Below are positions 44,262-54,236 of a DNA stretch of 54,236 nucleotides, in pieces. The DNA lies in assembly GCA_045648605.1 (NCBI GenBank), contig JAZROG010000011.1, positions 1-54,236 of the forward strand. The letters run 5' to 3'. This stretch comes from Eubacteriales bacterium. GTDB taxonomy: Bacteria; Bacillota; Clostridia; Oscillospirales; CAG-272. Numbering within the stretch: position 1 is the stretch's first letter; every line of letters begins with the position of its first letter. Both the position numbers and the translations under genes were made by a program. Below the pieces are notes generated by a model that was not told the origin of the DNA, ran no database searches, and was given only the letters and a program-made list of their open reading frames with translations.

Positions 44262-44543
44262 ATGTCTAAAGTATCTACGAACATCAGCCTTGATGCTGAA
44301 ACCAAAGCTAAAGCGCAGGTAATGCTTGCTGATCTTGGAATGGATCTTTCTACTGCTGTAAACATTTTTCTTCGTCAAATGCTTTATGAAGGTGGAATTC
44401 CGTTTTCTATTACCAGAGATGTTCCTAACAAGATTACTCTTGAAGCAATGAAAGAAGCACAGGAAATGTTCCGTTCTCCCGAAAAGTACAAGAAGTATGA
44501 CAATGTAGACAGTATGATGGAGGACATTTTAGGTGAAGTATGA
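44262..44543 (+). CDS. Type II antitoxin, RelB/DinJ family
   Basis: The 93-aa N-terminal ribbon-helix-helix pattern (NISLDAETKAKAQVMLADLGMDLSTAVNIFLRQ) is typical of DinJ/RelB. It overlaps the toxin gene by 11 nt. Confidence 0.85.
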   Translation: MSKVSTNISLDAETKAKAQVMLADLGMDLSTAVNIFLRQMLYEGGIPFSITRDVPNKITLEAMKEAQEMFRSPEKYKKYDNVDSMMEDILGEV

Positions 44544-44808
44544 GATCGTACCTTCCAATCAATTTAAGAAGGATTTAAAATTAGCGCAAAAACGCGGATA
44601 TGATCTTGATAAAATAAAAAAGGTTATTACTGCTCTTGCGAACGGTGAAACACTTGAAGCAAAATATCGTGACCATTTGCTTACCGGTAATTACGGCGGT
44701 TATCGAGAATGTCATATTCAACCGGATTGGTTGCTCGTATATCAAATAGACGGAAATCAATTGATATTGTTCTTGGCTCGAACAGGCACGCACAGCGATT
44801 TGTTTTGA
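44533..44808 (+). CDS. yafQ: Type II toxin, YafQ family (RelE/ParE superfamily mRNA interferase)
   Basis: FKKDLKLAQKRG ... DHLLTGNYGGYRECHIQPDWLLVYQ ... ARTGTHSDLF matches the YafQ signature, including the terminal H..LF. Confidence 0.85.
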   Translation: MKYEIVPSNQFKKDLKLAQKRGYDLDKIKKVITALANGETLEAKYRDHLLTGNYGGYRECHIQPDWLLVYQIDGNQLILFLARTGTHSDLF

Positions 44809-44811
44809 GCT

Positions 44812-44964
44812 TTACCGATTGGTTTGTACAACATTGCCGATCGGTAATTTCTTATATAACATCAACATCGGAGATGCCTGTTACATTTGCTAAATTTTAT
44901 GTGATATATCATATATAAATCATGCAACATTACCAATCGGTAAAACTGAATATCCAATCGGTAA
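44812..44964. repeat. Cluster of palindromic TTACCRATYGGTAA-type motifs (four copies here, more at 45865..45893)
   Basis: Copies are TTACCGATTGGT (44812), TTGCCGATCGGTAA (44834), TTACCAATCGGTAA (44930) and ATCCAATCGGTAA (44952). Two sit in a longer unit, CAACATTRCCRATCGGTAA (44829..44847 and 44925..44943). Confidence 0.6.
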
Positions 44965-45012
44965 TTCTTTCGGCAACAATAGAAATAAAACTAAAAAACT
45001 TTCCGAAATCTA

Positions 45013-45041
45013 TTGACAAAATAGGATATATCCTATATAAT
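45013..45041 (+). promoter_or_regulatory. Consensus promoter with a perfect palindromic operator in the spacer
   Basis: TTGACA (45013..45018), 17-nt spacer, TATAAT (45036..45041). The spacer contains the 14-bp perfect palindrome TAGGATATATCCTA (45022..45035), and a TAGGATA half-site repeats at 45049..45055. Confidence 0.65.
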
Positions 45042-45084
45042 ATATGTGTAGGATAAAACATTCCATTTTTACGGAGAATAATCA

Positions 45085-45354
45085 ATGAATGAGATCAAAA
45101 TCAGGTATTCAAAGGACGCACTGAAATTTTTATCAAAATTGGATAAAAAATCGGTTGGTAGAATCCGTGATGCTATTACAGGACTAACTTATAATCCACC
45201 CGTTGGAGACATCAAAACAATGCAAGGCTACAACGACGGAAGGAAACGACTCCGTGTTGGCTCGTGGAGAATTATCTACCGGCACGAAAATGAAGAAATG
45301 GTTGAGATCATCTTCGTGATTGATATTGGTAATCGCGGAGATATATACAAATAA
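45085..45354 (+). CDS. Type II toxin, RelE/ParE family
   Basis: 89-aa ORF. KDALKFLSKLDKKSVGRIRDAI..L..NP ... KRLRVGSWRIIY ... V.IIFVIDIGNRGDIYK is the RelE/StbE/ParE fold pattern. Confidence 0.85.
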   Translation: MNEIKIRYSKDALKFLSKLDKKSVGRIRDAITGLTYNPPVGDIKTMQGYNDGRKRLRVGSWRIIYRHENEEMVEIIFVIDIGNRGDIYK

Positions 45355-45367
45355 GGAGGTATCTTTT

Positions 45368-45586
45368 ATGTCAAGTATTGCGATTGAAGCGGCACGCTTA
45401 ATGGATGCTCTGCCCGAAGCAGACAAAGCGTTTGCTTACGAGTTTATCAAGAAATTGGTTTTAGCTTGGGATCCCGATTTTACTAAGGTAACTGCCGATG
45501 AGGCAAAAAGAATAGAGGATGCGGAAAACAGCGGCTACGTTGATGCAGACGAAATTGATTGGGAGAGCATTGGAACCGATGAGTAA
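45368..45586 (+). CDS. Small acidic protein (72 aa), putative antitoxin or neutralising component
   Basis: An AAGGAGG SD sits 8 nt before ATG 45368. The C-terminal half is highly acidic (EDAENSGYVDADEIDWESIGTDE). It is sandwiched and translationally coupled between the toxin and the HTH gene. No family is recognised. Confidence 0.6.
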   Translation: MSSIAIEAARLMDALPEADKAFAYEFIKKLVLAWDPDFTKVTADEAKRIEDAENSGYVDADEIDWESIGTDE

Positions 45587-45812
45587 TATAACCCGTATTG
45601 TCGAAGCGGACGAAATTATACAAGCATTGATCGAGGCAAGACGCGCGTCGGGAATGACGCAAAAGGAATTGTCAGAACTTACAGGAATCGCCCAGGGGGA
45701 CATCAGTAAGCTGGAAAAGGGAAATTCGAATCCTTCTCTGCGTACTTTGATTCGGCTTGCCGAAGGAATGGGAATGCAGTTAAAAGTGGAATTTTGTCCT
45801 TCAAGCCATTAA
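45579..45812 (+). CDS. XRE-family HTH protein (antitoxin or regulator of the module)
   Basis: ATG 45579 overlaps the previous ORF by 8 nt. RRASGMTQKELSELTGIAQGDISKLEKGNSNPSLRTLIRLAEGMG is a canonical HTH_3 domain. Confidence 0.85.
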   Translation: MSNITRIVEADEIIQALIEARRASGMTQKELSELTGIAQGDISKLEKGNSNPSLRTLIRLAEGMGMQLKVEFCPSSH

Positions 45813-48094: not shown

Positions 48095-48494
48095 GGGGGC
48101 GCAATGGTTTCGACAGGGATTCTGAGGTATGATAAGCGTGGCGGGCCGGCTAATCCCGATAAAATGGCTAAATTAAAAAATAAACGACAACTCTACAGTT
48201 GCAATGGCTGCCTAATTAAGTGCGTCCTCGGACGCATTTAATGGCAGTGCTGCGGTTCATTTAATACCGCCCGTTCCGCCGAGGAATACTGCGACCTCGG
48301 CCTGAGCGTCATTTACAGCAGTGAACTTGCATTGGTCTTTCGCCCTTGAACCGATCAAGCATAAAAGGGCTACCGCAAAGGAAAGTCTGTTTGCCGACGT
48401 TCCCACGCGGGAATTCTTAAAAGACAAACTGCCCACGGAGAAAGTCATATCAACGGGTTTTTGGACACGGGTTCGATTCCCGTCGCCTCCACCA
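48095..48494 (+). ncRNA. ssrA: Transfer-messenger RNA (tmRNA, SsrA)
   Basis: 5' GGGGGCGCAATGGTTTCGACAGGG pairs with 3' ...CGCCTCCACCA, an acceptor stem with a G3:U wobble. A T-arm GGACACGGGTTCGATTCCCGTC is present. The internal tag frame ends ...AAC GAC AAC TCT ACA GTT GCA ATG GCT GCC TAA (stop at 48213..48215). Confidence 0.93.
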
Positions 48495-48841: not shown

Positions 48842-51800
48842 TTAAGCCGCAGGATATGCTTGATACACATACTCATATATTCTTTGCTTATAATCTGCAA
48901 CCTCATTATCGTCATAGCTTTCGGGAAGATCAGCCCATAGCAGATCACGAATCAAGACATTGACAATAGACTGCGTTTCTTCCTTGTCACGCCAGTGATC
49001 CAAATCATGTATGCAGGATTTCACTTTTGAAAGCATAGTTTTAGAAAGCGCTTTTACCTTCTTGATCTCATCTTTAGTAAGTGAATCCTTGCCGTTGACA
49101 AGCAAATCAAAGATAGTCAATTCCTCATCGCTGTCAAAACCTTCTCGAACATAACGCTTCTGCTCATCGTCAAGAGTGTTGACAAGTTTGATTAGATTTT
49201 CAAATATAACAGCTATCTCGTCCTTATGATTGTTTTGATTATATTCATCAACGATTTCTTGGTAACGCTCATAATAGTTAATTCTCAGCGGATTATTTTT
49301 AAGCATTTTAGCAAGACGAGACTCAACAAGTTCCTGTAAATCCTTTAGCAGAAGATTTTTGTTCCAAACTCGTTCAAACTCTCTCTGCAACAGAACGAAA
49401 TCTATACTGCTGATATCGAATTTTTTGCTTTCAACAAGCCCTTCTTCGTCCTGAGGAGATACAGTTACATATTCGCTTACTATCTTGCTTATGTTAGACA
49501 TTAAAGCAGAATTATCGGCATGAATTTTCTTTTCCTGCATCTGATCATAAATGGCACTGATTGCGTTTTTGTAACTAACTGTTTGTTCGGAAACTTCACC
49601 CTTTTCAATGTATTTAAACATTTTGAAAAGCTCTCTTGCCTGTATCTCAAATCGCTTCTTGATCTCACTTGTGGTGCACATAGCATCCGCTCCCGACTTA
49701 ACAAGCTTTAACTTATCAAAATCAGACTCGTTTACCAGAGAATTCAATGAAAACCCGTTTTCAAGCATATAGGTATCTATGCTCTTGATTGTATTCATTA
49801 TTTTTGTGATCAGTTCGCTCTTATCAGGTGCAGGATCATCACCAATCTTTTCTCCACCCTTTGTTGTGTAATCAGACAACGCCTGTCTCAGCGCCTTAAC
49901 AACGCCAATATAGTCAACAATAAGACCATTACTTTTTCCGTCACAAACACGATTAGCTCTCGCTATCGTTTGCATAAGAGTGTGTGCTTTCAAAGGCTTA
50001 TCAAGATAAATTGTTGCAAGAGATTTAACGTCAAAGCCTGTCAACCACATAGCACATACAAAAACGATTCTGAACGGATTATCCGAATCCTTAAATTCTT
50101 TATCCATTTCGCGTTTTTCCATCTTTGTTCGATGAGGAGTAATGTCTAAGCCCCAATTATTGAAAGTTTGAATCTCATTTTGCTCTTGGCTGACAATAAC
50201 AGCCATTTCCGTTTCCTTCATCCATTCAATTTTGCGCATAAGCTCTTGGGACTCCTGCTGTGTTGCCTTTTTCAGCTCTTTTTCAAGCTCGGCAATTTTC
50301 TCTTGCCAATATTTCTGTGCAAGATTATACATCTTAGCACAAGTGACCTTATTTACACAGACAAACATAGCCTTGCCTGTTGTCCAAAGTTCCGAATAAT
50401 GATTGACAAAATCCATGGCTATTGCATCAAGACGCGGCTCGGAAGTTATAATATGAATCTCTTTAGCGATCTCCATTTCGAGCTTTGCCTGTTTGTTGAC
50501 ATCAAGGTCGGCTTCTTCAATGGCTTCAAGAAGTGCTTCATTGATTTCGGGATTTGTGATATTAAGCATATCACTTCGGTTTTCATAGTAAAGCGGTACT
50601 GTTGCACCATCTTCCACTGCTCTTTTGAAATCATAAATAGAGACGTAATTACCAAAAGTACGCTCGGTTATATTGTCATATTTAAACAGAGGTGTACCTG
50701 TAAAGCCTATTCTTGAGGCTGTTGGTAAAAGCTTGCACATATTATCCGCAAAAATACCGTTTTGCGAGCGGTGTGCTTCATCTGAAAGAATAATGATATC
50801 ATGCTCTGGTGTGATCGGATCTATAGAATCATCATTAAATTTTTGAATGAGCGTAAAAATAAAACTCGGATTGCCCCTAAGCATATCAAGCAATTCCTTG
50901 CCGCTTGCGGGAATATACTGACTTGATTTTGTTGCAAGACAACCGCAGGATTCAAAAGTATCGCTTATCTGCTTATTAAGCTCTTCTCTATCTGTAAGGA
51001 TAACAAAGGTGGGGCTGCCGACAAACTGACGTCTGATCTTTTGTGCAAGAAAAACCATTGAATAGCTTTTTCCGCTTCCCTGTGTGTGCCAGAATACACC
51101 CAGCTTTCCGTTTTTTAGCTTACGTGCCTTATAAGATTCAACAGCTTCATTAACACCAAGATATTGATGATTTCTTGCCAATATTTTTGAGGTTCTTCCG
51201 CCGGAATGATCATAGAGAATGAAATTCTCAAATAAATCCATAAAGCTTTTCTTATTACATATACCGAGAAGCATTGTTTCGAGATCTACTGCACCAACCT
51301 CATCTTCCTTCAATCGCTTCCACTCATGGAAAAACTCAAATTTAGAACCCATGGTGCCAACCTTGGCTTCAAGACCGTTAGAAAGCATCAAAAAGGCGTT
51401 AAAATGGAACAACTGAGGAATGGTGTCGAGATAGTCCTTATAATTACAATTAAAAGCATCTTCAACCGCAACATTTTGCTTTTTCAACTCAACGAAAAGC
51501 AACGGAATGCCATTAACAAATCCAACAATATCAGTACGTCTGCGATAATTGACACCGTGAATCTTCATTTCCTTAACTGCAAGAAAATGATTTTTTTCAG
51601 GTTCTGCAAAATTAAATACAGAAGCATTGCGTATTTCAAAGGTACCATCGTTTTTCTTAAACTGAACAGGGATACCATCACGGAGCATAGAATATTTTTC
51701 CTCGTTGATCTGCATGAGCGTGGCAGATGCTGTGTAGGCGCAGAGAGTCTTGACGGCAGAATCAGCACATTCTTCCGTCATCCAATCATTATTATCAAAG

Positions 51801-51979
51801 AGTGCACGGCGAAGATAACGCACAAGAACGATTTCCTTGTATGATTTTCTTCCAAGCGTGCCATCCTCGCCTAAAACCTCTGTATTATAAGCGAAAATGA
51901 CCTCCCAGCCCAGCTTGTCCGAAAGGACATTCCCTGCACTGTTCTGAACGAGTATATTTTCGGAATATTCCCAGCTCAT
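48842..51979 (-). CDS. hsdR: Type I restriction-modification system, restriction (R) subunit
   Basis: 1045-aa ORF with an N-terminal PD-(D/E)xK nuclease (RTDIVGFVNGIPLLFVELKK). SF2 motor motifs are HTQGSGKS (I), ILSDEAHRSQ (DEAH, II), GFTGTP (III) and QTIARANR (VI). The long helical C-terminal domain is typical of HsdR. Confidence 0.95.
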   Translation of the reverse strand: MSWEYSENILVQNSAGNVLSDKLGWEVIFAYNTEVLGEDGTLGRKSYKEIVLVRYLRRALFDNNDWMTEECADSAVKTLCAYTASATLMQINEEKYSMLRDGIPVQFKKNDGTFEIRNASVFNFAEPEKNHFLAVKEMKIHGVNYRRRTDIVGFVNGIPLLFVELKKQNVAVEDAFNCNYKDYLDTIPQLFHFNAFLMLSNGLEAKVGTMGSKFEFFHEWKRLKEDEVGAVDLETMLLGICNKKSFMDLFENFILYDHSGGRTSKILARNHQYLGVNEAVESYKARKLKNGKLGVFWHTQGSGKSYSMVFLAQKIRRQFVGSPTFVILTDREELNKQISDTFESCGCLATKSSQYIPASGKELLDMLRGNPSFIFTLIQKFNDDSIDPITPEHDIIILSDEAHRSQNGIFADNMCKLLPTASRIGFTGTPLFKYDNITERTFGNYVSIYDFKRAVEDGATVPLYYENRSDMLNITNPEINEALLEAIEEADLDVNKQAKLEMEIAKEIHIITSEPRLDAIAMDFVNHYSELWTTGKAMFVCVNKVTCAKMYNLAQKYWQEKIAELEKELKKATQQESQELMRKIEWMKETEMAVIVSQEQNEIQTFNNWGLDITPHRTKMEKREMDKEFKDSDNPFRIVFVCAMWLTGFDVKSLATIYLDKPLKAHTLMQTIARANRVCDGKSNGLIVDYIGVVKALRQALSDYTTKGGEKIGDDPAPDKSELITKIMNTIKSIDTYMLENGFSLNSLVNESDFDKLKLVKSGADAMCTTSEIKKRFEIQARELFKMFKYIEKGEVSEQTVSYKNAISAIYDQMQEKKIHADNSALMSNISKIVSEYVTVSPQDEEGLVESKKFDISSIDFVLLQREFERVWNKNLLLKDLQELVESRLAKMLKNNPLRINYYERYQEIVDEYNQNNHKDEIAVIFENLIKLVNTLDDEQKRYVREGFDSDEELTIFDLLVNGKDSLTKDEIKKVKALSKTMLSKVKSCIHDLDHWRDKEETQSIVNVLIRDLLWADLPESYDDNEVADYKQRIYEYVYQAYPAA

Positions 51980-51998
51980 TTGGGTACCTCCTGTTTTG

Positions 51999-53375
51999 TT
52001 ATAACATTTTTATTGTTTCAGCAAACCTTTTCAACTCACCATAGTGATGAGCTATCGTTTCATAATTATCACCCTTGTAATGCGAAAACACGACTCTTGA
52101 ATGTCTCCTATGCATCCAATACCAATTATAAAGAACCGCGCAGTATAAATTGGTTTCTTTAGGCAGTATGTATTTTGTTGGCTCGTCAGGAAAACCACGT
52201 TCTGTCTTGAAACAAATATTATCATACTTATCCTTAAAAAAATCACTGAACGCTGGAGTTAACGTTTGGTTGGGTGAAACAAAGATTTCTGCATACATTT
52301 TTTCCGATTGATTCAAGTTTATAGGATTATTCAAAAAGCAAGAATTGTCATTATATACACATATCAAAACAGTTAAAAGTAACTCCATACACATAAATAC
52401 ATAATCTTTTTTATCTGAAAATAACATTTGATGTGCAATAGTAGCTTTATTCACAAGCTGTTCTTGCGTTCTTGCGTCTATATTCTTAAATATAGCTTGA
52501 ATGAATTCTTCAACAGAATCGCCGAACTGAAAAATATCTTTATCAAACATTGCGATGTAATCGGAATATTTTTCTATCACTTTCTCCGACACTTCGCCAC
52601 GATCTAACTTTATTTCAAACTGAATAAATTTTCCAAGATATTTTTCTGGCTTATCAAATCCGAAAATTTGTTTTACACTTGTTTGTAATTGTTCTTTATC
52701 CATTGAAAGAACGGTGATAACATTGTTGGATTTTTCGGTTAGATGGTGCAACCGCTCTAAAACCTTAATCGAATACTCCGGCAAACAACGATCAAGCTCG
52801 TCTACCATGAATACGACCGTTTGATCTTTGCTCAATTCTGCAATCAATTCTTGCAAACGATGCAAAGCTTGGTTAAAAGAAAAGTAAACATCATATTCGT
52901 GTGATTGCTCGACTTTTTCTTCTTCAGCACTAACCGAGGTTTTCAATGTTTCATATGTAGCCTTAACATCTACACCAATCTTATCTTTAATACCATCGTT
53001 AACCATAGATAGCAGAGTGGTTCCAACCGCTTTTAACACCCCAAGAACTCGTGCTTTCTTCTTCTCATCATTCCAGAGCTTTGTTTTTTGATTGATAATA
53101 TCAATCATAGATGCAACAATAGCCACAAGTGGTTCTTCGTAATAATCGTATTTCCAGCAATTATAGCGAATCACGAAATATTTGTCCGATGTTGTTTCTT
53201 CGGATTGTATCTTGCTCAACTGTTCTTCGTACATATCCAAAACGAAGCTTTTACCACATCCCCAAACTCCATTGATTGCAAAAGATGTGCTTATCTTGTT
53301 CACAGATATATTTTCAGTTAGGATTACAAGTTTATCAACAAATTCTTCACGATTTAAAATATCAAGTTTACCCAA
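51999..53375 (-). CDS. KAP-family P-loop NTPase (apparently soluble)
   Basis: 458-aa ORF with Walker A GVWGCGKSF and the KAP-typical Walker B VVFMVDELDRC, separated by a long insert. It uses a TTG start with a GAGGT SD 6 nt upstream. Its stop lies 19 nt before the hsdR ATG, and that gap contains the hsdR AGGAGG SD. Confidence 0.88.
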   Translation of the reverse strand: MGKLDILNREEFVDKLVILTENISVNKISTSFAINGVWGCGKSFVLDMYEEQLSKIQSEETTSDKYFVIRYNCWKYDYYEEPLVAIVASMIDIINQKTKLWNDEKKKARVLGVLKAVGTTLLSMVNDGIKDKIGVDVKATYETLKTSVSAEEEKVEQSHEYDVYFSFNQALHRLQELIAELSKDQTVVFMVDELDRCLPEYSIKVLERLHHLTEKSNNVITVLSMDKEQLQTSVKQIFGFDKPEKYLGKFIQFEIKLDRGEVSEKVIEKYSDYIAMFDKDIFQFGDSVEEFIQAIFKNIDARTQEQLVNKATIAHQMLFSDKKDYVFMCMELLLTVLICVYNDNSCFLNNPINLNQSEKMYAEIFVSPNQTLTPAFSDFFKDKYDNICFKTERGFPDEPTKYILPKETNLYCAVLYNWYWMHRRHSRVVFSHYKGDNYETIAHHYGELKRFAETIKML

Positions 53376-53399
53376 TGCTATACCTCAATTTTGTTAGTC

Positions 53400-54206
53400 T
53401 TAATTGTTTATTTTTTGCAAGACTGTTTCTACTCTCTTTTTGCGCTCTAAATTATCAATTTCCAATTTTGCTAACAGCCACATTTGATAGATATCATCAT
53501 AACACTCTTCAATTTCTTTTGGTGAAAGAGATTTGATATAGGGGTTGTCCTCATTATTATGGCGAACAAATTTTTGTAGCATTTGAAAAAGATCATCTGC
53601 AAAAGCCCTGTTTATTCCGTTTAAAGTTTTTCGTTGTGGCTCTATGTCATCTGCCAAAAGTTTAAGAATTGCCTTTTTCTTTGCTATATTACCATTAAGG
53701 CTATGATGATTATACTCAAGAATACTAACTGCAATATCTTCCTTAACAATTTCAGCCACAGATACCACATCAGCCTTTTGAGGTACAAAAATTGTAATAC
53801 TATCTACTTTCAAAGGTTTATGAGCAATATCAGTAATGCACTCGCGAATAATCTCTATTAAATGCTCAATGTTTTCTTTTTCACTTTCACTTATTGCTTG
53901 ATAAGCATATTTAAATGTTGCGTCACAAAGATTCCAAATATATTCGCATAATGAAAGCAAATCATCTACTCCAACCGAAGCAAAGAAATCAGAAAATGAA
54001 AAGTCATAAGTTTCATTAAAATCAGAAATAGAGGTAGTTCTTCCTCGCAAAAACTTGGGCAACATTTCAAAATATTCATCCACTGTATAAACTATAGCTG
54101 CTTCTGTTGAAGTCCCTTGAAAAAACAATTTATAAATTCTCTTGTATTCCGCTTGTACGTTAAACGATGATTCATTTAATATTTCATAAAAATTACGTCT
54201 TACCAA
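53400..54206 (-). CDS. Hypothetical protein (268 aa), first gene of the KAP cassette
   Basis: Clean ORF with a TTG start and a GGAGGTG SD 5 nt upstream. The SD lies inside the last codons of the preceding gene. It is mostly helical and acidic by composition, with no motif I can assign. Confidence 0.7.
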   Translation of the reverse strand: MVRRNFYEILNESSFNVQAEYKRIYKLFFQGTSTEAAIVYTVDEYFEMLPKFLRGRTTSISDFNETYDFSFSDFFASVGVDDLLSLCEYIWNLCDATFKYAYQAISESEKENIEHLIEIIRECITDIAHKPLKVDSITIFVPQKADVVSVAEIVKEDIAVSILEYNHHSLNGNIAKKKAILKLLADDIEPQRKTLNGINRAFADDLFQMLQKFVRHNNEDNPYIKSLSPKEIEECYDDIYQMWLLAKLEIDNLERKKRVETVLQKINN

Positions 54207-54208
54207 AA

Positions 54209-54236
54209 TTACACCTCCAATTCGCCGCTCATAAGT
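54209..54236 (-). CDS. 3' end of an upstream gene in the same operon (identity unknown; hsdS or hsdM would be expected)
   Basis: The minus strand reads ...LMSGELEV* with TAA at 54211..54209. Only 9 codons are visible. Confidence 0.3.

Follow-up and report, generated by a model that had tools for sequence, protein, structure and literature searches.

Two separable genes, an uncharacterised 268-residue protein and a soluble KAP NTPase, between hsdS and hsdR of a Clostridia type I restriction-modification operon

Introduction

Genes nested in restriction-modification (R-M) operons are well known to yield new phage defences. One such nest lies at the end of contig JAZROG010000011.1 of an Eubacteriales bacterium, a stretch of 54,236 nucleotides (nt) which, taken whole, is referred to here as the window. 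A protein of 268 amino acids (aa), named X268 in this article, and a KAP P-loop NTPase are encoded there in the slot between hsdS and hsdR of a type I R-M operon. A sequence-only reading of this DNA had presented the two genes as an undescribed defence pair. We compare the locus with related loci on a set of comparison contigs, named L001 to L097, and address whether X268 and KAP belong together, how the slot is built, and what each protein may do. It is probable that the slot of the window holds two independent embedded single-gene cassettes, and not a two-gene system.

The operon at the end of the window

The genes and features of the operon, all on the minus strand, are the following.

54209..54236, minus strand: 3' end of hsdS, an open reading frame (ORF) cut by the window edge, with the tail ...LMSGELEV* (the 8 last codons and the stop, 54209-54235)
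53400..54206, minus strand: X268, 268 aa, TTG start, uncharacterised family
53376..53404, minus strand: degenerate second copy of the hsdS 3' end (ATTAAGACTAACAAAATTGAGGTATAGCA), which spans the X268 stop codon
51999..53375, minus strand: KAP P-loop NTPase, 458 aa, TTG start, member of PDC-S20
48842..51979, minus strand: hsdR, type I R-M restriction subunit, 1045 aa, ATG start

Structurally, the operon is compact. The gaps between hsdS, X268, KAP and hsdR measure 2, 24 (53376-53399) and 19 nt (51980-51998), no minus-strand terminator-like site or hairpin was found in the intergenic gaps, and X268 and KAP are apparently co-transcribed with the R-M operon. The three Shine-Dalgarno sequences named in the sequence-only reading are each present: GGAGGTG (54212-54218), within the last hsdS codons, serves X268; GAGGT (53382-53386), supplied by the degenerate copy of the hsdS tail, serves KAP; and AGGAGG (51987-51992) serves hsdR. 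The TTG starts are also well placed, as homologues start at the same residues (MxRRNFYEI for X268 and M-x-KLDILNR for KAP). Their proposed meaning, a low expression of toxic effectors, is not supported. Eight of 12 X268 homologues start with ATG, and KAP homologues are divided between ATG (6 of 10) and TTG (4 of 10); judged from these starts, a "deliberately low expression" through TTG is not a family trait.

The upstream gene is taken as hsdS because its eight-codon tail reads as the conserved HsdS C-terminus known from related operons. The match of LMSGELEV* is exact in L084, with one or two substitutions in L001, L006 and L011. The window holds only these final 8 hsdS codons, and the hsdM side lies beyond its end; the related loci are all arranged as hsdM-hsdS-...-hsdR. 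On the other side, HsdR scores 482 bits against TIGR00348 (cut-off 284.55) and E 2.3e-154 against the PADLOC model REase_I. Its Pfam domains are HSDR_N, SWI2_SNF2, ResIII and a T1R_D3-like domain, so that both the nuclease and the SF2 motor expected of such a subunit are present. ORFs, gaps, hsdS tail and HsdR profiles thus agree with the sequence-only reading in placing X268 and KAP within a type I R-M operon, between hsdS and hsdR. No record identical in sequence to X268, KAP or HsdR turned up in exact look-ups.

Two separable genes in one slot

For the contexts of X268, 83 loci were assembled by looking up exact proteins and by scanning genomes and metagenomes, and the ORFs of these loci were classed by iterative BLAST against reference HsdM, HsdS, HsdR, Fic and KAP proteins. 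They represent 55 distinct X268 sequences, and 26 loci with at least 2.5 kb on both sides were considered evaluable. For KAP, six distinct contexts were sampled from among its homologues.

L084: hsdM-hsdS-KAP-hsdR, no X268
L085: hsdM-hsdS-KAP-hsdR, no X268
L086-L091: KAP beside a large SACS/helicase gene in a defence-rich region, outside R-M
L092-L094: hsdM-hsdS-X268 (408 aa)-KAP-hsdR
L095: KAP alone, near Fic and conjugation genes, outside R-M
L096-L097: hsdM-hsdS-TIR/SEFIR-KAP-hsdR

X268 and KAP are separable in both directions, because X268 mostly occurs without KAP and the KAP contexts are mostly without X268. A KAP gene neighbours X268 in 5 of the 55 distinct loci, in addition to the partial locus L048. 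Conversely, X268 is absent from five of the six sampled KAP contexts and present only in that of L092-L094. A close comparison is offered by L084, the closest relative of the window operon, where KAP is 86% and HsdR 85.5% identical. There, hsdS is followed directly by KAP, tblastn finds no trace of X268, and KAP begins with TTG 2 nt past the hsdS stop, which is the very place at which X268 starts in the window.

These contexts bear directly on the model of the sequence-only reading, in which X268 and KAP form one guard or abortive-infection module, with KAP as a nucleoside triphosphate (NTP)-driven sensor or switch and X268 as a novel effector, firing when a phage inhibits the R-M enzyme. The model draws on real features of the window: the two genes lie side by side in the same orientation and are apparently co-transcribed, the order of X268 followed by KAP recurs in L024, L041, L048, L050 and L092-L094, and X268 and KAP alike occupy the hsdS-hsdR position known from PrrC, as had been claimed. 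A co-occurring pair, however, is not what the counts above describe, an outcome that the sequence-only reading had itself named as one that would refute its proposal. The order itself is not fixed, as KAP stands upstream of X268 in L027 and two genes come between X268 and KAP in L074. In L096, a TIR/SEFIR protein takes the place of X268 upstream of KAP, and PADLOC treats the KAP family as a single-gene candidate. The comparative data, as far as gene neighbourhoods can tell, weigh heavily against the pair, the division into sensor and effector finds no comparative support, and we regard the module as highly improbable. Two independently embedded single-gene cassettes remain the reading that we prefer for the window.

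The TIR_2/SEFIR protein just mentioned has 295 aa (L096 6091-6978 and L097 639-1526). Its gene is the first one past hsdS and is followed by a KAP gene of PDC-S20, a further case of defence-type genes stacked in this slot.

The hsdS-hsdR junction as a slot

The slot itself has a recognisable construction. The HsdS C-terminus of these operons, ...(E/S)(L/I)EV*, is coded by ...GAA TTG GAG GTG TAA, a strong built-in Shine-Dalgarno sequence, and this tail motif precedes whichever gene comes after hsdS in 33 of 37 junctions. The end of hsdS thus doubles as the ribosome-binding site of any next gene, and the hsdS-hsdR junction of this operon clade would act as a plug-in slot for varying defence-type genes.

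In the window, the junction alignment reveals the hsdS tail twice, before and after X268, as an imperfect direct repeat of about 30 nt. With blastn, the true hsdS tail (window 54236-54197) corresponds to L084 5918-5957, and the homology of the KAP cassette begins inside the L084 hsdS tail (window 53390-51381 to L084 5932-7939, 81%). Homology to the X268-less L084 thus resumes at the second tail copy. Tail-like sequences also precede KAP in L092 and L074. From these junctions it would appear that cassettes are gained and lost by recombination at the hsdS 3' end, each one keeping its own ribosome-binding site.

X268 is one among several occupants of the slot. Others include PDC-S56 (L019), PDC-S32/AbiJ_NTD4 (the L021 group) and PIN_12 (L062), and further families are represented by proteins of 209-224 aa, 203 aa, 231 aa and others. 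An hhalign comparison among slot families (X268, the 220-aa protein, the 203-aa protein, AbiJ_NTD4, Y231 and the N-terminal extension of X268 described below) revealed no relationship.

One subgroup of X268, with 280 aa, is always preceded by a conserved protein of 209-224 aa (18 loci; L021 7329-7958, L054-L066, L050 324-962), an example of which is found at L056 6296-6958. In front of this protein stands either a 203-aa protein or a 278-aa AbiJ_NTD4/PDC-S32 protein. The 209-224-aa protein and its neighbours may form a multi-gene module in the slot.

X268, a large family without a known relative

The claim that the cassette is undescribed stands for X268 and falls for KAP, which is covered over its full length by a catalogued PADLOC family (PDC-S20, below). 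Searches of X268 against Pfam, PADLOC, NCBIfam and PHROGs returned noise only and no family match. When 63 members were scanned against Pfam, 59 families were matched in all, none of them consistently. The family is nevertheless a large one. A word-indexed search gave 204 homologues (best E 6.5e-111), and an exhaustive profile search of clusters at 50% identity gave 1,092 clusters at E<=0.001 and 779 at E<=1e-10. A tblastn search of the plasmid and phage collections gave no match, and the members of the X268 and KAP families at NCBI carry no assigned names.

Nearly all members are 260-300 aa long. A subgroup of 405-421 aa has an extra N-terminal extension of about 145 aa (L006 10001-11242, L012, L017, L092 5761-6987), which matches no family except, weakly, PDC-M14B of PADLOC (E 0.0015). 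In L027 (5929-6552) and L074, the extension is a separate ORF of 207-238 aa, downstream of a short X268. This pattern of fusion and fission suggests, on the strength of gene structure, that the extension is a functional partner of X268.

An AlphaFold2 model built from 63 sequences has a mean predicted local distance difference test score (pLDDT) of 92.3 and a predicted template modelling score (pTM) of 0.75, and is almost all alpha-helical, with one beta-hairpin. In a separate model of the C-terminal domain (pLDDT 94.4), four long helices pack into a bundle. With Foldseek, the full model had no match at E<=0.001 in the Protein Data Bank (PDB; best E 0.13) or in BFVD (best E 0.19), and the model of the C-terminal domain had none at that threshold in the PDB (best E 0.75). 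The top PDB matches for the X268 models were G protein-coupled receptors and generic helical bundles, with TM scores below 0.2-0.5; for the full model, TM scores stayed below 0.2. X268 is a new, large family without a fold relative found in the PDB or BFVD.

Residues Y165, K177, H216 and D237 are invariant in the family, and those that are nearly so include R3, E88, N92, H167, E189, R215, N218, E233, Y236 and Y240. This pattern of tyrosine, lysine, histidine, aspartate and glutamate suggests a catalytic or ligand-binding site, as far as conservation can indicate one. Known catalytic motifs were considered by eye, namely HEPN (Rx4-6H), HD and PD-(D/E)xK, and were set aside: R215 directly precedes H216, an HD signature is absent, and alpha-helices make up nearly the whole fold. 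The protein is acidic, with an isoelectric point of about 5, and its charge gives no hint of binding to DNA-mimic proteins.

X268 inside and outside R-M operons

In 17 of the 26 evaluable loci, hsdS or hsdM lies at most three genes upstream of X268 and hsdR at most three genes downstream. The commonest and simplest layout is hsdM-hsdS-X268-hsdR (for example L025, L028, L031, L040, L042 and L043), and X268 usually starts 2-3 nt past the hsdS stop. Pairwise identities of X268 and of the adjacent HsdR are correlated (Spearman 0.74 over 171 pairs from 19 loci), with the reservation that these pairs are not independent and that shared descent alone could explain the correlation. X268 diverges faster than HsdR, with identities of 34-56% against 38-83%. 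Taken together, position and identity indicate that X268 is tied to R-M and co-inherited with its genes. X268 occurs in gut and rumen Firmicutes (Lachnospiraceae, Oscillospiraceae, Acutalibacteraceae, Phascolarctobacterium and Absicoccus) and one member of the Sphaerochaetaceae.

The tie is not absolute, as 9 of the 26 evaluable loci are without R-M neighbours. At L002-L005 and L010, X268 and a Fic gene are joined in a bicistron (2-nt gap, for example L002 9078-10810), which is followed by a strong terminator and is without R-M genes. Among the remaining neighbours of X268 are AAA_14/DUF4143, DUF4365, RlaP and HipA-like proteins, the last of these in the non-R-M locus L016.

Some further observations concern these neighbourhoods. 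An element with a phage-type integrase adjoins the Fic-X268 bicistron. Elsewhere, a Fic gene stands ahead of hsdM (L001 and L006-L009) or in the vicinity of KAP (L086, L087 and L095). Right after hsdR, L006 (14449-17307), L007 and L009 encode a protein of 952 aa with a faint DUF6650 match and no PADLOC match, which may be a further gene linked to the operons that carry the 413-aa form of X268.

The KAP NTPase

The KAP protein is a clear member of its family. It matches Pfam PF07693 (KAP_NTPase) with 101.2 bits (cut-off 20; E 8.4e-29) over residues 28-258, with a Walker A motif, GVWGCGKS, at aa 36-43 (nt 53247-53270) and a Walker B motif, VVFMVDELDRC, at aa 187-197 (nt 52785-52817). Many KAP members typically have transmembrane helices within the NTPase domain. 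A Kyte-Doolittle scan found no 19-residue window between Walker A and Walker B that nears transmembrane hydrophobicity; the maximum of the whole protein, a 19-residue mean of 1.58, lies at aa 323-343, in the C-terminal half. By its motifs and by this hydropathy scan, the protein is the soluble KAP variant that the sequence-only reading had recognised. Following the NTPase domain (about aa 28-258), the C-terminal region of about 200 aa is without a known domain.

In PADLOC, KAP matches PDLC04957 (PDC-S20) with E 6.8e-151, from residues 3-457 to profile positions 4-444 of 446. This family, modelled there as a single-gene candidate, makes the KAP gene of the window a new member of an already catalogued candidate family. 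PDC denotes phage defence candidates, a set compiled from genes that sit within BREX, DISARM and type I R-M loci (Payne et al. 2024, bioRxiv 10.1101/2024.01.29.577857); the "S" presumably stands for a single-gene candidate. A literature search found no mention of PDC-S20 by name. Further PADLOC matches are weak and N-terminal, to QatA and PifA (E 1e-15 to 4e-19), and the Tmn and PrrC models did not match KAP (PrrC: none at E<=1). Membership in Qat fails, as NCBIfam QatA gives 68.8 bits (cut-off 600) and covers only the N-terminal region. KAP homologues number 2,774 at E<=1e-10.

The suggested link of KAP NTPases with phage defence is borne out by the PADLOC candidate family and by experiment. 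In a 2026 study, EF_KAP and three KAP-fusion ORFs from human gut metagenomes protected E. faecalis against phage, and in EF_KAP, the one protein dissected, defence required both Walker B and the C-terminal region (PMC13552941). By analogy, the KAP protein of the window is most likely a stand-alone NTP-dependent defence protein with its C-terminal region as the effector. Binding and hydrolysis of NTP would control this C-terminal region.

Genomic setting

The content of guanine and cytosine (GC) is 33-34% over X268 and KAP (window 52000-54000), 37-40% over hsdR and 41-44% in the flanking genome. The low GC over X268 and KAP is consistent with a recent horizontal acquisition of both cassettes. 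About 350 nt past the end of hsdR lies a transfer-messenger RNA (tmRNA) gene.

48095..48494, plus strand: tmRNA gene (ARAGORN), tag peptide DNSTVAMAA*

The homologous R-M island of L001 also adjoins a tmRNA gene (L001 4380-4746), in the opposite orientation. tmRNA genes are common sites of genomic islands. The R-M island looks like a tmRNA-associated genomic island, with the tmRNA gene marking its boundary. We read this end of the window as the distal part of a type I R-M operon (hsdM, unseen, followed by hsdS, X268, KAP and hsdR), carried by a gut-type Clostridia genome on a low-GC island.

Two toxin-antitoxin-like modules lie beyond the tmRNA gene, at window 44262-45812 on the plus strand.

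44262-44543 and 44533-44808, plus strand: RelB antitoxin and YafQ toxin, module 1
45085-45354 and 45519-45812, plus strand: ParE-like toxin and XRE-type helix-turn-helix protein, module 2

Possible roles of X268 and KAP

If the two genes are separate cassettes, X268 would be an optional fourth gene of these type I R-M operons and would act alone. It would serve as a backup or accessory that is linked to R-M and takes the place of PrrC, or else defend the cell autonomously. Judging from sequence and gene context, we consider the chances even that X268 has some anti-phage role. The idea of a PrrC-like guard, proposed for the pair, could still hold for X268 alone. X268 would then be held inactive by the HsdM/HsdS/HsdR complex and be set free, as a toxic or antiviral effector, when an anti-restriction protein of a phage (Ocr, ArdA or Stp-like) disables restriction, with KAP as an unrelated co-resident. 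The position between hsdS and hsdR in about two-thirds of the evaluable loci, the start shortly past hsdS on the hsdS Shine-Dalgarno sequence, and the tracking of HsdR identity all fit such a guard, as do the many invariant polar residues, which suggest catalysis, and the precedent of PrrC, a known gene found almost only embedded in type I R-M. In the sequence and fold searches, however, X268 resembled neither PrrC nor any nuclease or toxin, and nine of the evaluable loci are without R-M neighbours, among them the Fic-X268 bicistron with its own terminator. We hold a guard role to be unlikely, and there is likewise only an outside chance for the fuller version, in which X268 is produced in stoichiometric amounts with HsdS, watches over the R-M complex and sets off an enzymatic backup once anti-restriction proteins of a phage disable that complex. 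If a guard role were true, the hsdS-hsdR junction would be a dedicated cassette-exchange site for such backups.

The same translational coupling to hsdS and co-inheritance with hsdR could instead mark X268 as an R-M accessory or regulator, involved in assembly, restriction alleviation or the control of HsdR, and not as a defence effector; in these operons it always stands within the operon and not beside it. Related operons do without it, however (L084, L085 and L096, with HsdR 63-85% identical or the same architecture), it also occurs away from R-M, and its evolution outpaces that of HsdR, which is usual for conflict genes. An accessory role is improbable on this balance. A biochemical alternative is that the C-terminal domain is a MazG-like, all-alpha NTP pyrophosphohydrolase, acting by nucleotide degradation. 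Three X268 family profiles match the integron MazG structures 2q73 and 2q5z (E 0.07, 0.005 and 0.009), with the invariant EExYDD of X268 (including E233 and D237) aligned over the EExxD motif of MazG, and the four-long-helix bundle is of the right kind. The match is confined to the last two helices, however, and the position of the first acidic motif of MazG (EExxE) is not conserved across the X268 family. Foldseek retrieved no MazG, dUTPase or HisE structure with either the full or the C-terminal model, and no MazG-type family is found among the 25 Pfam families most often matched by the 63 members. On these grounds the MazG lead is unsupported, and we judge this activity improbable.

The preferred reading, of two independent cassettes with X268 as a candidate immune protein and KAP as a stand-alone defence protein, has to be held against several considerations that weigh against it. 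X268 and KAP are adjacent in at least seven distinct loci (the window, L024, L041, L048, L050, L074 and L092), and it is possible that the two proteins cooperate when both are present. The context samples are small, anchored on X268 or KAP, and drawn mostly from metagenome contigs, so that the percentages are rough. The loci without R-M neighbours argue against a strict dependence of X268 on R-M. PDC-S20 is a computational candidate only, and the KAP defence proteins that have been tested have transmembrane helices and different C-terminal regions, which makes the analogy with the KAP of the window a loose one. Lastly, a defence function of X268 or KAP, and a coupling of either to the R-M enzyme, is what we infer; what the data show directly is the anatomy of the operon, the family memberships, the context counts, the separability of X268 and KAP, and the cassette junctions.

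Significance and comparison with known systems

Defence genes nested in type I R-M at the PrrC position are of a known kind, to which PrrC, TgvAB and the products of guilt-by-embedding belong. In the systematic search for embedded genes, 3,231 embedded protein families were identified and 145 candidates were added, yet more than half of the embedded genes per host system are unexplained (Payne et al., bioRxiv 10.1101/2024.01.29.577857). X268 belongs to this acknowledged pool of embedded families without an assigned function, and nothing about it is surprising in kind. Its place at the PrrC position in about two-thirds of the evaluable loci makes it a strong candidate for an R-M-linked immune protein. 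The KAP of the window, soluble and encoded by a gut Clostridia, is a clean representative of PDC-S20 and is directly testable. Furthermore, the slot has a physical basis, in the hsdS 3' end as ribosome-binding site and in the copy that flanks X268, which suggests how embedded genes are swapped. The value of the locus lies in X268 and the cassette junction as a specific lead, and not in the proposed pair or in a conceptual advance.

Several known defence proteins share the P-loop NTPase core of the KAP/YobI group with the window KAP, namely Tmn, QatA and PifA. Tmn is a transmembrane NTPase of the YobI family, and no Tmn model matched the window KAP. QatA works with QatBCD, whereas the neighbours of the window KAP are X268 and hsdR. 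PifA is much longer, with a PADLOC profile of 720 positions against the 458 aa of the window KAP. EF_KAP and the three gut-metagenome ORFs (PMC13552941) come from gut Firmicutes, as does the window KAP, and have in common with it an NTPase followed by a domainless C-terminal region. Compared by description, EF_KAP has transmembrane helices and a C-terminal region of 322 aa, whereas the window KAP has no such helices, and its NTPase part of about 260 aa is followed by a C-terminal region of about 200 aa.

For the arrangement in the operon, TgvAB of V. cholerae VPI-2 (PMC11411939) is likewise encoded by additional genes within a type I R-M operon, and its defence does not depend on HsdR. It is a two-protein system of GmrSD-like type IV restriction, whereas the genes of the window are separable and X268 is without a known family. 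PrrC of the E. coli prr locus (EcoprrI) is the usual illustration of a gene that hardly occurs except within type I R-M (Payne et al., bioRxiv 10.1101/2024.01.29.577857), and its position between hsdS and hsdR is common to X268, which occupies that slot at 17 of the 26 loci. PrrC combines an ABC-type ATPase and an anticodon nuclease in one protein, whereas X268 is without a P-loop or a recognisable nuclease domain, and the PrrC model of PADLOC matched neither X268 nor KAP at E<=1. KAP is very like PDC-S20, whose model it matches end to end and with whose founding members it has the embedding in type I R-M in common. The family occurs both in R-M (the window, L084, L085, L092 and L096) and outside it (L086-L091 and L095), and the window KAP is without structural difference from it; what is particular here is that it shares its slot with X268.

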